Source: Escherichia phage BF15. From it: a stretch of 64,000 nt of DNA. The DNA lies in the sequence record MW822007.1. One strand, written 5' to 3'. The notes beneath the pieces are model-generated. The model made no database searches. It saw only the letters and a list, made by a program, of their open reading frames with translations, and was not told the origin of the DNA. Below, one piece after another: positions 54,766 to 58,495 of this stretch; position 1 is the first letter of the stretch; every line of letters begins with the position of its first letter. Made by a program: the position numbers and the translations under genes.

Positions 54766-55031
54766 TGTTCATCCTTCAGAGTTTGATTTACATCTCTATT
54801 ATAAATCAATTCATCATTAAGCTCAGGCAAAGACTTATGATATGTCGTTCTAACTTTATTTCCTTGCATCCAGTGCTTGACGTAAATGAAACCTTGCTCT
54901 ACACATTTTTTAAAAATTCGTTCGTCTTTTTGAGCACGGAATTCTGGATTGCATCTAAAAAATTGATTTACGTGACCGTAATCACGTGTAGTATTACCTT
55001 CATTTTCATAAATAGTATGAACAACAAACAT
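54762..55031 (-). CDS. hypothetical protein (30.1 position)
   Basis: 89 aa ORF, start/stop overlaps with both neighbours on the minus strand. Confidence 0.6.
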   Translation of the reverse strand: MFVVHTIYENEGNTTRDYGHVNQFFRCNPEFRAQKDERIFKKCVEQGFIYVKHWMQGNKVRTTYHKSLPELNDELIYNRDVNQTLKDEQ

Positions 55032-55870
55032 TAGAATGCTCCTTGAAAAATATTATCACCACTAGTAGGTCTATTATACAAATACTCTATGCCACCAGGT
55101 TTAATATAGTTCCATGTCTGAAACGGATGTGTCTGATATGGATGATATAGATGATTATAAGGATTAAATCCAGGCGTTCTCCAGGTAGTGTTCCAAGGAA
55201 AAGAATCGTTTTTAACCATCTTCTCAATTAAATCTTTTATAGCTTTTTCACTATCAAAACTTTCTTTATTTTCCTTCGGCGAAAAAAGCTTATTTTCTAC
55301 ATCATTCCATGTATAAACTCGCTGCGCAGTTTTTGGAATATTATCACGCTCCCCTCGAGCCATCCAATAAACAGGAACATTTAATATTTCACTCGCATGA
55401 TCGCAGTGATGAGCGAGATCGTCAATATAACAAATTACGTTATATTTCTCTTTTGCCTTTTTGAACAGCTCTTCTTTTGAAGAATCATGACCACACATCA
55501 TTACTTCCGAGAAAGCACCAGGAAAAAGAGCATTCAAATTAAATTGACGATTCAATAAAGCGTCAATAGAATCACCCAATGCTGTAACAGCAACAAAATT
55601 ATAATCTTCTTTTAATTTGTTAATTACACACAGGGCATCTTTATACGGAGACAAGTAACGAATAAAATCTGAACGATTGTATTTTTCAATTAACTTGACG
55701 CCAAGTTCTTCGTCACAATTAAAGAGTTTACCTGGAGAAATAAATTTCTCATCTTGGATCATTTTTAAAATATGTTCTAACGGAAGATTATATTTCTGAG
55801 CAAAATAAGGAAGGCCTGATTGCCAGCTTAAACATACTCCATCAATATCAGTCAAAATAGTTGGTTTCAT
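55031..55870 (-). CDS. HAD-superfamily-like hydrolase (30.2 position)
   Basis: 279 aa; N-terminal LTDIDGV resembles HAD motif I (DxDG[TV]). Confidence 0.6.
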   Translation of the reverse strand: MKPTILTDIDGVCLSWQSGLPYFAQKYNLPLEHILKMIQDEKFISPGKLFNCDEELGVKLIEKYNRSDFIRYLSPYKDALCVINKLKEDYNFVAVTALGDSIDALLNRQFNLNALFPGAFSEVMMCGHDSSKEELFKKAKEKYNVICYIDDLAHHCDHASEILNVPVYWMARGERDNIPKTAQRVYTWNDVENKLFSPKENKESFDSEKAIKDLIEKMVKNDSFPWNTTWRTPGFNPYNHLYHPYQTHPFQTWNYIKPGGIEYLYNRPTSGDNIFQGAF

Positions 55871-56331
55871 AGAGAGTCTCTTAATAGGTTTAACACATCA
55901 ATAAATTCAGCTTCGGTTAGTATTGTATCATCTTTTGTTAGACCACTAGCCATGCTGTGCTTCAAAACTTTTCCTTTCGAGGCTTGTAATGCATCACGAA
56001 AACCCCTGTTTTGGATCGCTGCTTCAAAATATGCATTTGTGTATAATTCTTTCCATGCTTCGGAATATCTTGAAAACGGAGTTCCAAGCCAGAACAACGT
56101 GCCACGGTCCTGAGCTCTTGCATAAGCTCGTCCAGCTTTTTGCGCGTCCAACCCGGACATCCCAAATATACGTCTTTGCTGTTCAACATTTTTCACCTTA
56201 CATCCTTGGAGGAATCCTTCTAGACCTCCAAATTGAATACCATCCATAACGAAAGGCCATTGGGCGAAATTGCTTAATGCACATGATGGCCATTTAAAAT
56301 TGCTTCTAATCTCTAACTCAGACATTTTCAA
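55867..56331 (-). CDS. NADAR / YbiA-like (DUF1768) protein (30.3 position)
   Basis: 154 aa; segment LSNFAQWPFVMDG resembles the YbiA/NADAR N-terminal signature. Confidence 0.6.
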   Translation of the reverse strand: MKMSELEIRSNFKWPSCALSNFAQWPFVMDGIQFGGLEGFLQGCKVKNVEQQRRIFGMSGLDAQKAGRAYARAQDRGTLFWLGTPFSRYSEAWKELYTNAYFEAAIQNRGFRDALQASKGKVLKHSMASGLTKDDTILTEAEFIDVLNLLRDSL

Positions 56332-56524
56332 TACTTATAATTTCAACATCAGCCCAATGACCATAGCAAGGAAGACGAAATTCAACTGGCCAGTTAGGGT
56401 CCTTTTCTAATATAATAGACTGAACTTGTGACTCTTCATATTCATCGGTATACGGACCTTTATACGTTACTTTATATGTGACCTTAATGTACTGAATTCC
56501 AAAAATCTTATTAATTATATTCAT
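56318..56524 (-). CDS. hypothetical protein
   Basis: 68 aa ORF in codirectional overlapping array. Confidence 0.5.
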   Translation of the reverse strand: MNIINKIFGIQYIKVTYKVTYKGPYTDEYEESQVQSIILEKDPNWPVEFRLPCYGHWADVEIISIENV

Positions 56525-56718
56525 ACTAATTCCTTTAATCCGTAAATAGGAGATAATTCATCACCCATACGAAGGTCTTCATTTCCATCTACCCAGGAAA
56601 CAATATAAGCCTCTTTTATTTGAATACCACTCCATTTAAATGGAGATAGAACCTTAGAAATTAATCCAGGTATACCAACTCCCTTTAATTCAACAGTTTG
56701 ACCTAAAAAGAATTTCAT
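56521..56718 (-). CDS. hypothetical protein
   Basis: 65 aa ORF in codirectional overlapping array. Confidence 0.5.
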   Translation of the reverse strand: MKFFLGQTVELKGVGIPGLISKVLSPFKWSGIQIKEAYIVSWVDGNEDLRMGDELSPIYGLKELV

Positions 56719-57056
56719 TAGAACCTCATCTGAAAACCGTGCGATTTAACATTACCACCACCAATGTCAGAAATATTAATTTCACGCGCAATTGAAGGGT
56801 CAATGTCAATTTCACGATTGAGTTTAACGATAGCTAAAGTATCGCGCCCATTTACACTACGGAACTCTAAGGGGCAGACTACATTAACGTAGTTTTTAAT
56901 CGATTCACTGGTAGGTTGCAAATGAGCAGGAAGGCCTTTAGGCGCCTTTGAGAAAACCACTTCACAGAAATTTTTACGGGTATCAAAATAAGTAGTCATA
57001 AACATAGTATTTTCCTCAGTAAGGGGCCGAAGCCCCTGTTTTATTTTAAATATCAA
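56718..57056 (-). CDS. hypothetical protein
   Basis: 112 aa ORF; RBS GAGGA just upstream of 57056. Confidence 0.55.
   Translation of the reverse strand: MIFKIKQGLRPLTEENTMFMTTYFDTRKNFCEVVFSKAPKGLPAHLQPTSESIKNYVNVVCPLEFRSVNGRDTLAIVKLNREIDIDPSIAREINISDIGGGNVKSHGFQMRF
57022..57050 (+). terminator. plus-strand terminator-like hairpin inside minus-strand early gene array
   Basis: AGGGGC-CGAA-GCCCCT followed by GTTTTATTTT on the plus strand. Confidence 0.4.
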
Positions 57057-57411
57057 ATTCGTTAAGAACTACATCAAAGATTGCTTTAAGATGCTCAGGT
57101 TTAGCTCTGTTACTCAGAATATGACGAATCCAAGTTTTAACCAGAAGCTTACGATTGACGCCATTCCAGCAAGGATGAGTACCTAAATCACGTTGACGGA
57201 AATCATCATCTAATGCGATTTTAAAAGAAGAACCTTCTTTCGTGATTGAAACCGTGATGCCATTTTCAAATCGCATATAAACGTAGTTAGGAGTCATATA
57301 CTGTTCAATTTCACATACTGATCCATTTTGATGTTTCCAAAGGCAGATAGTATCAATAGAACCTGCAATACCGTTAGAAACATATTTACGTTCAAAGTTA
57401 ATGTAGTTCAT
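57046..57411 (-). CDS. hypothetical protein
   Basis: 121 aa ORF in codirectional array. Confidence 0.55.
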   Translation of the reverse strand: MNYINFERKYVSNGIAGSIDTICLWKHQNGSVCEIEQYMTPNYVYMRFENGITVSITKEGSSFKIALDDDFRQRDLGTHPCWNGVNRKLLVKTWIRHILSNRAKPEHLKAIFDVVLNEFDI

Positions 57412-57479
57412 TTTTATTCTCCGAGATATTTAATTGCGGTACAGGTATATAATATCATATCCTGTACCAAAGTAAACAA

Positions 57480-57812
57480 TTATTTTACTACTTTCCAATG
57501 TTGCATGTCAAGTTTACCAACTTTTTTCATCTTCTCAATTAAGCGTTCGGCACGCTGGCGAGCTGTAACATAATACCATTCACCTAATTCATTTTGTTCA
57601 ATTTTTCCAACGATTACTGTATTCAATTCATAAATCCAACCAGTAAAGAAATTATGAACTTGGATTGTAAAGGTGAAATCTGTTCCCATACCTTCTGTTG
57701 TTTCTACTTCAATAATATCACCTTCAACTGCCATTAAGAACCACATAGTTTCGTTATATTCACCATTGAAGCATTTAGTTTTAACTGTGGCGTTCAGATT
57801 AATCGTTTTCAT
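57480..57812 (-). CDS. hypothetical protein
   Basis: 110 aa ORF; early-type promoter motif upstream. Confidence 0.55.
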   Translation of the reverse strand: MKTINLNATVKTKCFNGEYNETMWFLMAVEGDIIEVETTEGMGTDFTFTIQVHNFFTGWIYELNTVIVGKIEQNELGEWYYVTARQRAERLIEKMKKVGKLDMQHWKVVK

Positions 57813-57839
57813 TTTATTCTCCTTTGTTTGTGTAAGATA

Positions 57840-57869
57840 ATACTATCACAAAGGAACTATACTGTAAAC
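57840..57869 (-). promoter_or_regulatory. T4 early-type promoter (GTTTAC-N18-TAGTAT) for 110-aa ORF
   Basis: Minus strand GTTTAC (57864..57869), 18-nt spacer, TAGTAT (57840..57845), between terminator and ORF start. Confidence 0.45.
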
Positions 57870-57884
57870 AACTTTATGCAATCT

Positions 57885-57918
57885 TTGGAAAATAAAAAAG
57901 GACTCCCGAAGGAGTCCT
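57885..57918 (-). terminator. rho-independent terminator after basic 72-aa ORF (minus strand)
   Basis: AGGACTCC-TTCG-GGAGTCCT hairpin followed by TTTTTTATTTT on the minus strand. Confidence 0.8.
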
Positions 57919-57922
57919 CAAC

Positions 57923-58141
57923 TTATGCTTTCTGCTTACCAAAACGAGAAGCATCATCTCGAAGAACCGCACGTGCTCGGCGCATGATCTTCTCAACAGT
58001 TTGATTGATACGAGAGTTCGACCCACGCTTGTAACCAGCGCGTTTAGAATCACCAACTTTCTTTTCAACTGCTTTCTTTGCTTTAGCTTGTTTTGCCATT
58101 ATAAATTCTCTTTTAAATGAAAATGCAGGACTTATTGGCAT
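57923..58141 (-). CDS. hypothetical highly basic small protein
   Basis: 72 aa Lys/Arg-rich ORF (may start at internal MAKQAKAKK); followed by rho-independent terminator. Confidence 0.5.
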   Translation of the reverse strand: MPISPAFSFKREFIMAKQAKAKKAVEKKVGDSKRAGYKRGSNSRINQTVEKIMRRARAVLRDDASRFGKQKA

Positions 58142-58495
58142 TGCCTGCGAAAGCCCTCAAGGGGTACTTAGGTTTTGAATATTTACCGACAGGATAACCA
58201 TAAACCCGTCATCATACCTTATAGCTCTTATCTGTTGCACACCGTTAGCTTAAAGGTTCCGGGTTCGATTTCTCGAGGATAAGATATATACTGATGGATA
58301 TATAGGCCTTGAGGCGTACTCCCAATTGGCCATCACCTCGGGGTAGCATGCACTTGCCGCTATAAGAATAACATTCAAGAGGTACACCATAAAACTGCCG
58401 GGGTCTTAAAACTATAATGATTCGCAAATCATTAATCAGACAGTTCGATGGCTCCTCGATTTTAGCTCACACTAAGGCAGTGAATCTCCAATAAA

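Follow-up and report, generated by a model that had tools for sequence, protein, structure and literature searches.

Five T4-type early genes, 30.8 to 30.4, beside the counter-defence gene adfN in Escherichia phage BF15

The analyzed window, a 64,000-nt stretch of Escherichia phage BF15 (MW822007.1), comes from a T4-like phage (Tequatrovirus), and the region considered here shows 97% identity to Tequatrovirus genomes, with vB_EcoM_WL-3 and NBG2 as the best matches. Five minus-strand ORFs at 56318-57812, located exactly where the preliminary description had placed them, are orthologs of the T4 genes 30.4, 30.5, 30.6, 30.7, and 30.8 (NP_049818 to NP_049822; 91-98% protein identity) and correspond to PHROGs 2042, 1690, 2153, 1582, and 1507, respectively. 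Gene order, strand, lengths, junction overlaps, and intergenic signals are as in T4, BF15 being a relative of T4 and not T4 itself, with few substitutions in the five genes. With 30.6 counted as 95 aa, the genes cover approximately 93% of the 1495 bases (Table 1). The term "undescribed", which had been applied to these ORFs, does not hold, since they have been annotated in T4 for decades, two of them have Pfam families, and an earlier study dealt with their transcription (Virology 2006;344:378).

Table 1. Genes and signals of the 30.9-30.3 region in the BF15 window
Feature	Position	Strand	Remarks
Intrinsic terminator after gene 30.9	57898..57919	-	Terminator scan; upstream boundary of the early unit
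T4-type early promoter of 30.8	57840..57869	-	GTTTAC, 18-nt spacer, TGATAGTAT (extended -10)
Ribosome site of 30.8	57819-57822		GGAG
Gene 30.8	57480..57812	-	110 aa, pI 5.7
T4-type early promoter of 30.7	57449..57477	-	GTTTAC, 17-nt spacer, TGATATTAT
Palindrome GGTACAGG-N15-CCTGTACC	57438-57468		Overlaps the -10 element of the 30.7 promoter
Ribosome site of 30.7	57419-57422		GGAG
Gene 30.7	57046..57411	-	121 aa, pI 7.7
UUCG-tetraloop hairpin between 30.7 and 30.6	57022..57037	-	Sense strand without a U tract after it
Gene 30.6	56718..57005	-	95 aa from ATG at 57005, pI 8.7
Gene 30.5	56521..56718	-	65 aa, pI 5.2
Gene 30.4	56318..56524	-	68 aa, acidic, pI 4.7
Gene 30.3 = AdfN (neighbor, outside the five)	55867..56325	-	PF08010

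In the terminator that closes gene 30.9, a U run comes directly after GAGGACUCC-UUCG-GGAGUCC; the structure has a folding energy of -15.4 kcal/mol (z = -3.35), and the pairing of its stem is preserved by compensatory changes in RB69, AV110, JS98, and VR7. Past this terminator, the host sigma-70 RNA polymerase would start at two very strong T4-type promoters, those of 30.8 and 30.7, with predicted transcription starts at ~57833 and ~57442. Both promoters carry the -35 GTTTAC, TGn, and -10 elements of the T4 early sigma-70 "uber" promoter, the timing being taken from T4 data only; the architecture of early promoters is reviewed in PMC2988021. The minus strand has five occurrences of the pattern GTTTAC-N15-18-TAnnAT, where 0.96 would be expected. 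At the 30.8 promoter, GTTTAC is retained across genera or differs by one base (GTATAC, GTGTAC), and the 30.7 promoter and its palindrome are almost invariant among T4, RB69, AV110, JS98, and VR7. The palindrome is found once in the window, with 0 occurrences expected by chance. Middle promoters are listed only downstream of the five genes (P30 and P30.2), and in T4 the transcripts and proteins of all five were detected and classed as early (PMC9697503 supplements), so that the previous designation of the ORFs as early is well founded. We regard the identity and expression of 30.4-30.8 as T4-type early genes as practically certain.

GGAG is conserved at the ribosome sites of both 30.8 and 30.7, RegB cleavage being known from the T4 30.7 mRNA only, which this RNase cuts at the GGAG of the ribosome site (PMC9409239). 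By extension to 30.8, RegB would cut both sites minutes into infection, and the two proteins would therefore be made in a short early burst. The spacers that follow these two genes, 68 nt between 30.8 and 30.7 with a promoter inside and 40 nt between 30.7 and 30.6 with the hairpin inside, are at odds with the reported packing of the array by start/stop overlaps, which is seen at only three junctions, namely 30.6/30.5 (1 nt, TAATG), 30.5/30.4 (4 nt, ATGA), and 30.4/30.3 (8 nt). The hairpin folds at -11.8 kcal/mol (z = -2.8), its stem is retained across genera via compensatory changes together with a UUCG-to-GAAA loop swap, and it would probably define an mRNA 3' end, stabilize the mRNA, or attenuate transcription weakly. 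Past it, 30.6-30.5-30.4-adfN would be read as one unit, with 30.6 as the first of four genes; the 1-, 4-, and 8-nt overlaps imply that translation of 30.6-30.5-30.4-30.3 may be coupled. Just upstream of the array, at 58215-58365, there is also a 151-nt structured RNA, apparently undescribed, which JS98 carries as well; Rfam and tRNA scans of the region yielded no known RNA family.

As a mechanical ORF, 30.6 is 112 aa long (56718-57056). We rejected this form as an artifact of extension to a TTG: T4 annotates 95 aa, the phrog_2153 profile covers only residues 18-112 of the longer frame (E = 6.8e-49), and a conserved GAGG with the ATG at 57005, as well as the conserved hairpin, fall inside the supposed extension. 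Gene 30.6 thus begins at this ATG and does not overlap 30.7. Its product is 95% identical to the T4 protein and present in 770 records; an exhaustive search of 1.84 billion representatives gave only a handful of genuine clusters, and as judged from these matches the family is confined to T4-like phages. Apparent domain fusions of 820, 625, and 304 aa were discarded as spurious matches to TPR, beta-propeller, and low-complexity repeat proteins.

Profile searches returned full-length phage family matches for all five ORFs (E from 1e-32 to 1e-64). The only Pfam families matched are known by name alone: PF06919 (Phage_T4_Gp30_7) for 30.7, at 172.2 bits (cut-off 27) with residues 1-120 aligned to all 118 positions of the profile, and PF06019 (Phage_30_8) for 30.8, at 199.5 bits (cut-off 25) with residues 1-110 aligned to all 124 positions. 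The earlier statement that the ORFs have no recognizable motif is therefore a fair one; nor do all five have characterized homologs with housekeeping roles. In 47 syntenic loci, which represent at least 8 genera, the genes follow one fixed order, 31-rIII-30.9-30.8-30.7-(30.6)-30.5-(30.4-30.3)-30.2-30, and the ribosome sites of the array are conserved across genera. Pairwise dN/dS is below 0.5 for each of the five genes (30.4, 0.41; 30.5, 0.46; 30.6, 0.17; 30.7, 0.23; 30.8, 0.29), the comparators being the ligase (0.21) and gp31 (0.18). Although the small size of the ORFs (65-121 aa) and the lack of a Pfam family for three of them would suit remnants or frames left open by chance in AT-rich DNA, the full-length family matches, the synteny across genera, the dN/dS values, the ribosome sites, and the detection of the proteins by T4 proteomics leave such a reading with a negligible probability, and it is already refuted.

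In a transposon study of T4 on E. coli K-12, all five genes were scored "Non-essential", with insertions at nearly all TA sites (30.4, 21/21; 30.5, 19/20; 30.6, 22/22; 30.7, 28/29; 30.8, 25/25), whereas the ligase and gp31 were scored essential; the accessory nature proposed for the array is thereby borne out. The five members show no likeness to one another that would indicate a tandem array of paralogs, all ten pairwise hhalign probabilities being 6% or lower, and a common origin was rejected on these grounds. We interpret the array as the 30.8-30.4 part of the early region that in T4-type phages runs from 30.9 to ligase, made up of five unrelated, genuine, and dispensable early genes.

Variation between phages, another feature ascribed to the array, is characteristic of 30.6 (25/47 syntenic loci) and 30.4, which come and go, and does not extend to the broadly conserved genes 30.7 (47/47), 30.5 (46/47, obtained by HMM), and 30.8 (43/47). 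Gene 30.8 (phrog_1507) is present in 1041 phage records and its product is 96% identical to T4 gp30.8, while the family as a whole falls into two deeply diverged allele classes of 110 aa and ~117-124 aa with ~40-45% identity. The product of 30.7, likewise 96% identical to its T4 counterpart, was found in 994 records, and the gene also occurs in Vequintavirinae, outside Straboviridae. Nucleotide identity of 30.7 between phage genera reaches 87-89%, where ligase genes show only 65-68%, which points to either recent gene flow or very strong constraint exerted by a conserved host target. The 30.5 family (phrog_1690, E = 3.7e-33) is represented in 735 records. The 30.4 protein (phrog_2042, E = 1.8e-32) is 91% identical to that of T4 and has an invariant C-terminal motif W-A-D-V-E-I-I-S, with the remainder 44-49% identical between genera; it also forms two deeply diverged allele classes (85-99% or <60% identity).

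All five products are small (7-14 kDa; pI 4.7-8.7) and soluble, without membrane segments, the highest 19-residue Kyte-Doolittle mean being 0.99. None of the five families gave a match below E = 0.05 when its profile was compared with the sequences of solved structures, and the weak matches to ArsD (30.6), telomerase (30.8), and SufB (30.4) were rejected as noise. Scans of the five ORFs against NCBIfam and against PADLOC, which models defense proteins, were negative; divergent members of the 30.4, 30.5, and 30.6 families had no significant match in Pfam (DUF2158 for one 30.5 member, E = 0.23); and a homolog search with a 3105-aa concatenation of the five families and their divergent homologs returned nothing. 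Structure prediction and fold search, as suggested in the preliminary description, were run for 30.7 and 30.8 from shallow alignments of 10 and 4 sequences. The 30.7 model, of moderate confidence (pLDDT 78; one of five models), has seven strands and two C-terminal helices, a fold also seen in BFVD models made independently for members of the family (TM 0.74-0.76), and the 30.8 model is of low confidence (pLDDT 66). Foldseek comparison of both models with the PDB gave no match at E <0.1 and TM-scores of at most 0.35, and the BFVD search returned only uncharacterized family members.

The only member of the array with functional data is 30.5. According to a recent preprint (bioRxiv 10.1101/2024.12.17.629029), T4 30.5 binds the host polyphosphate kinase Ppk, as demonstrated by pull-down mass spectrometry and reciprocal immunoprecipitation, and activates the immune sensor bNACHT11; a clean 30.5 deletion was also constructed and plated. 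These properties were measured on the T4 protein, whereas the BF15 protein is known here from its sequence. Since the latter is 98% identical to T4 gp30.5 (64/65 residues), both Ppk binding and bNACHT11 activation very probably carry over. The earlier idea that such ORFs encode host-takeover factors is thus matched by 30.5 with respect to binding of a host enzyme, but its described effect on immunity is the triggering of bNACHT11. We propose that products of the array bind host proteins stoichiometrically and thereby would adjust host physiology or counter host responses under particular conditions. For 30.4, 30.6, 30.7, and 30.8, a mechanism of this kind, shown only for T4 30.5, is somewhat favored. 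The models of 30.7 and 30.8 offered no fold match pointing to a mode of binding, and the ligase-like dN/dS of 30.6 and 30.7 is awkward with full dispensability in the laboratory; these two genes could instead have an enzymatic or nucleic-acid-related role that their sequences do not reveal. The functional class proposed here, that of small, early, dispensable Tevenvirinae proteins of unknown fold that each bind one host protein, is represented by T2 gp6 and gp57, with CoaA and GlpK as their targets, and by the MreB/C/D-targeting Emp (Gp94) of Mosigvirus AV110. None of the three is related in sequence to the array, and expression of Emp is toxic; AV110 proteins found to be toxic carry numbers in the range 94-263, whereas the AV110 30.x genes, ~30-33.6 kb into the deposited record, would be low-numbered if the numbering follows the record.

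The neighborhood of the array suggests a different interpretation, in which at least one of 30.4, 30.6, 30.7, and 30.8 directly inhibits an anti-phage system as part of a counter-defense island, with 30.4 perhaps as a partner of adfN. The adjacent gene previously called NADAR-like is indeed a genuine counter-defense gene: 30.3 matches PF08010 (227.9 bits, cut-off 36), is 94% identical to T4 gp30.3, and corresponds to AdfN, a NADAR-type enzyme that undoes the ADP-ribosylation of DNA by DarT1 and thus acts against DarTG1 (Nat Commun 2025;16:1598; HIDEN-SEQ preprint). Like the five genes, adfN is early and dispensable; it would be co-transcribed with the array and, by its overlap, translationally coupled to part of it. 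Furthermore, 30.3 lies directly downstream in all 21 loci with a strong 30.4 match, T4-type 30.3 (>=80% identity) occurs in 729 records against 710 for 30.4, different small ORFs occupy equivalent slots in other genera, and dispensability on K-12 is shared with anti-defense genes. Diverged allele classes, as seen in 30.4 and 30.8, are known from arms-race genes, but recombination mosaicism explains them equally well. AdfN belongs to a recognizable enzyme family; in the five ORFs, neither an enzyme fold or motif nor any resemblance to AdfN was detected. The slow evolution of 30.6 and 30.7 argues against a counter-defense island. The HIDEN-SEQ preprint reports only 30.3/adfN and tk.4/adfM as the DarTG1 and DarTG2 hits, along with known factors for RexAB, RnlAB, and CBASS, and names none of 30.4-30.8 under these five systems; 30.5, by the account quoted above, triggers immunity instead of inhibiting it. 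We consider a counter-defense island, as put forward earlier, unlikely. With sensed triggers included, the chance that at least one of 30.4, 30.6, 30.7, and 30.8 acts as an undescribed inhibitor or trigger of a bacterial immune system is somewhat better, although still tentative; the best candidates are 30.4, owing to its adfN linkage and, together with 30.8, its allele classes, and 30.7, owing to its unmatched fold and its conservation. Together with AdfN, the 30.4 product might make up a counter-defense module, as its second component.

Alternatively, the five products might assist phage DNA or nucleotide metabolism as accessory factors, e.g., small subunits or regulators of replication-repair enzymes, with no host target, given the ligase, 30.2, and dCMP-deaminase neighborhood. 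The array is flanked by cd, gp31, and rIII at one end and by 30.2 and the DNA ligase at the other, and runs into the same transcription unit; purifying selection on 30.6 and 30.7 is as strong as on the ligase; and 30.7 is found in every syntenic locus and outside Straboviridae. On the other hand, the five genes differ from the ligase and gp31 in being non-essential, no sequence, profile, or fold likeness to nucleic-acid enzymes or binding domains was found, many genera with those replication genes lack 30.6 and 30.4, and 30.5 pulls down a host kinase and not a phage replication protein. This alternative appears highly improbable.

The discovery value of the locus is small, as the genes are catalogued in T4 and an early accessory role is consistent with textbook knowledge. 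The array is of use as a target list of four families that are carried by hundreds of T4-like genomes, expressed in the first minutes, and unassigned in function, beside a proven counter-defense gene. Interest in them is raised by their sibling 30.5, for which binding of a host kinase and recognition by an immune sensor have recently been shown. As starting points, the comparative results single out the strict linkage of 30.4 to adfN, the two allele classes seen in each of 30.4 and 30.8, and the unusually high conservation of 30.7 across genera.

The five small ORFs of the array correspond to T4 genes 30.4-30.8, which are real, early and dispensable. A search with the 2.4 kb around them matched 777 phage records; many Tequatrovirus genomes are 97% identical to this stretch. 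The assignment follows from the ORF list and the T4 record, which place the minus-strand genes in the order ligase 30, 30.1, 30.2, 30.3, 30.4, 30.5, 30.6, 30.7, 30.8, 30.9, rIII, and 31. Over its whole length, each of the five proteins matches a single PHROG family (E 1e-32 to 1e-64), and 30.7 and 30.8 additionally match their eponymous Pfam families, with scores far over the threshold. Profile searches of ORFs from 12 annotated regions of different genera and 37 IMG/VR loci revealed an identical gene order in 47/47 syntenic loci. Pairwise dN/dS values are 0.29 for 30.8, 0.23 for 30.7, 0.17 for 30.6, 0.46 for 30.5, and 0.41 for 30.4; the same rough estimate yields 0.21 in ligase and 0.18 in gp31. 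The five ORFs are genuine genes. The preliminary description, which presented them as candidates for undescribed inhibitor proteins, was correct in outline, as these are early, dispensable genes by a counter-defense gene, but the array is not new.

Coordinates of the features discussed (BF15 window, except for the last two rows, which refer to loci of other phages designated by L numbers)
Feature	Coordinates	Strand	Remarks
30.2	55031-55870	minus	279 aa
30.3'	55962-56189	minus	75-aa ORF, other frame, entirely within adfN/30.3
30.4	56318-56524	minus	protein 91% identical to T4
30.5	56521-56718	minus	protein 98% identical to T4
30.6	56718-57005	minus	protein 95% identical to T4
30.7	57046-57411	minus	protein 96% identical to T4
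30.8	57480-57812	minus	protein 96% identical to T4
30.9	57923-58099	minus	58 aa, protein 100% identical to T4
Putative mosaic region	55867-57812
Palindrome at 30.7 promoter	57438-57468
Terminator after 30.9	57898-57919		hairpin and U run, -15.4 kcal/mol, z = -3.35
Candidate structured RNA	58215-58365	minus	151 nt, rIII-30.9 intergenic region
Flanks of candidate RNA	58095-58214, 58366-58470
gp30.7 homolog	L009 4501-4872		Klebsiella phage KaOmega, Vequintavirinae
gp30.7 homolog	L049 5001-5357

Two further observations concern the adjacent genes. The ORF embedded in adfN is the annotated T4 gene 30.3'. The product of 30.2 has no Pfam match and only weak PHROG matches, namely phrog_415 (polynucleotide kinase, E 0.002) and phrog_1238 (phosphoheptose isomerase, E 0.008). 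In some of the records that share the 2.4-kb match, a gene is annotated as 5'-3' deoxyribonucleotidase or phosphatase.

The array had been described as packed with start/stop overlaps. Such overlaps are present at 30.6/30.5 (TAATG), 30.5/30.4 (ATGA), and 30.4/30.3 (8 nt), whereas spacers of 68 and 40 nt separate 30.8 from 30.7 and 30.7 from 30.6, respectively. The third ORF reaches 112 aa only by mechanical extension to a TTG: the T4 gene encodes 95 aa, the family profile spans residues 18-112 only, and the supposed extension contains both a conserved hairpin and a conserved GAGG-N8-ATG. With 30.6 being 95 aa long, 30.7 and 30.6 do not overlap.

T4-type early promoters were found ahead of 30.8 (GTTTAC-N18-TGATAGTAT) and 30.7 (GTTTAC-N17-TGATATTAT), and their layout agrees with the UP/-35/TGn/-10 architecture described for such promoters in T4 (PMC2988021). 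On its minus strand, the window has five occurrences of the pattern, versus about one expected. The ribosome site GGAGAATAAAATG is identical in 30.8 and 30.7 and is kept across genera. The T4 RNase RegB targets GGAG when it occurs in a ribosome site, and the 30.7 transcript is one of its established substrates (PMC9409239, with reference to Truncaite et al., Virology 2006;344:378). Compensatory changes across genera were observed in the UUCG hairpin that follows 30.7 and lacks a U tract, and they also preserve pairing in the terminator stem after 30.9. P30.2 and P30, the T4 middle promoters that are listed, are located downstream of the array, within 30.3 and 30.1. Taken together, the promoters, ribosome sites, hairpin, and overlaps suggest that 30.8 and 30.7 would be burst-expressed genes, each with its own promoter, and that 30.6-30.5-30.4-30.3 would form a coupled string.

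The -10 element of the early promoter of 30.7 is overlapped by a perfect palindrome, GGTACAGG-N15-CCTGTACC. No second copy exists in the window (0 expected by chance), and the sequence hardly varies among T4, RB69, JS98, and VR7. Since the likely transcription start is within its 3' arm, the palindrome would act as DNA, perhaps as an operator or cruciform, rather than as an RNA hairpin.

The array genes differ in their distribution. By tblastn, 30.4, 30.5, 30.6, 30.7, and 30.8 were detected in 710, 735, 770, 994, and 1041 phage records, respectively, compared to 1395 for the essential gp31. Among syntenic loci, 30.7 is present in 47/47, 30.5 in 46/47 (absent in RB69), 30.8 in 43/47, 30.6 in 25/47, and 30.4 in 21/47. 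In all 21 loci with a strong 30.4 match, 30.3 comes directly after it; three further weak 30.4-like matches occur in Gelderlandvirus-type loci without adfN. In other genera the array slots contain unrelated ORFs (L005, L006, L007, L008, L012, L013, L030, and L045), including proteins of ~170 aa between 30.8 and 30.7, of 150-204 aa replacing 30.6 (204 aa in Mosigvirus AV110), and of 55-69 aa replacing 30.4-30.3.

Nucleotide identity to RB69, JS98, VR7, and AV110 (L003, L004, L011, and L013) indicates that the region from 30.3 to 30.8 is probably a recombination mosaic. Identity is 87-89% in 30.7 and 80-89% in 30.3, and only 65-68% in the ligase gene. For 30.4 it is 59-63%, rising to 80-87% in the final 30 nt, and for 30.8 it is 52-55% to RB69, VR7, and AV110, while JS98 carries the T4-type allele (79%). 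Like 30.7 and 30.3, rIII is 80-89% identical to Mosigvirus, Dhakavirus, and Gaprivervirus. Both 30.8 (either 110 aa or roughly 117-124 aa long) and 30.4 (44-49% protein identity between genera, with an invariant C-terminal end) fall into two allele classes that are deeply diverged. Homologs of gp30.7 were also found outside Straboviridae (31-32% identity, profile E about 1e-48), among small-ORF arrays in otherwise unrelated context; the family therefore moves between phage families.

The five protein families are mutually unrelated (hhalign probabilities at most 6%). The proteins (7-14 kDa, pI 4.7-8.7) have no membrane-like segment and no match in NCBIfam or PADLOC, and family profiles found no relatives among 177,635 sequences of solved structures. 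With shallow alignments, AlphaFold2 modeled 30.7 as a sheet of seven strands with two helices after it (mean pLDDT 78, pTM 0.73; 1/5 models confident). Two distant family members have BFVD models that superpose on this fold with TM 0.74-0.76 and so support it; the PDB contained no structure resembling it (best E 0.15, TM no higher than 0.32). The weak 30.8 model (pLDDT 66) had no fold match either. When 1.84 billion cluster representatives were searched exhaustively by HMMER, 30.6 matched T4-like phage proteins only, three long matches being spurious repeat proteins.

A short distance upstream of 30.9, a 151-nt element constitutes a candidate conserved structured RNA, which looks more novel than the array itself. 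It is absent from T4, RB69, VR7, and CC31 and is carried by 404 phage records; Klebsiella phage copies are 90-95% identical in nucleotides to that of the window, whereas flanking proteins in one phage of that group (Jiaodavirus) are mostly only 33-69% identical. RNAalifold predicts a four-helix-junction fold for 16 copies (-38 kcal/mol), with 97.9% of cells paired versus 25-42% with slid partners, compensatory changes in 15/44 pairs versus 1-5 in slid controls, and the observed score reached by 0/500 shuffles. The RNA was assigned to the minus strand on the basis of frequent G-U pairs. No Rfam 15 family and no tRNA matched. Its most conserved 22-mer is missing from all of 185,579 reference genomes of bacteria and archaea, and 16 T4-like viral contigs each contain it once; a covariance model found a single copy in the window. 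The two flanks, which make up the remaining DNA between rIII and 30.9 and contain an A/T-rich hairpin (TAATGATT-TGCG-AATCATTA), are almost invariant between BF15, T4, and RB69, more so than most nearby coding sequence. The product of 30.9, encoded between the element and the terminator, is extremely basic (pI 11.4, net charge +13.5), a nucleic-acid-binding role being the obvious guess.

In a T4 transposon-insertion study, genes 30.1-30.9 were all non-essential on E. coli K-12, insertions being tolerated at nearly every TA site of 30.4-30.8. For RexAB, RnlAB, CBASS, DarTG1, and DarTG2, its text names only the known factors and tk.4. The NADAR-like gene after the array, 30.3, was shown to encode a counter-defense enzyme, AdfN, which reverses DNA ADP-ribosylation by DarT1 (Nat Commun 2025;16:1598). 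In another study (bioRxiv 10.1101/2024.12.17.629029), an AlphaFold-multimer screen identified T4 30.5 as activating the NLR-like sensor bNACHT11. Co-expression of the two greatly lowered colony formation (the authors' proxy for activation), deletion of 30.5 partially relieved defense, and polyphosphate kinase co-purified with tagged 30.5. One array member was thus shown, in T4, to bind a host kinase and to be sensed by an immune receptor. Our search of the literature on the function of 30.4, 30.6, 30.7, and 30.8 returned nothing. That these four are defense inhibitors is a possible but narrower and less probable claim. We infer that they may be small host-protein binders like 30.5, which would benefit the phage only in particular hosts or conditions.
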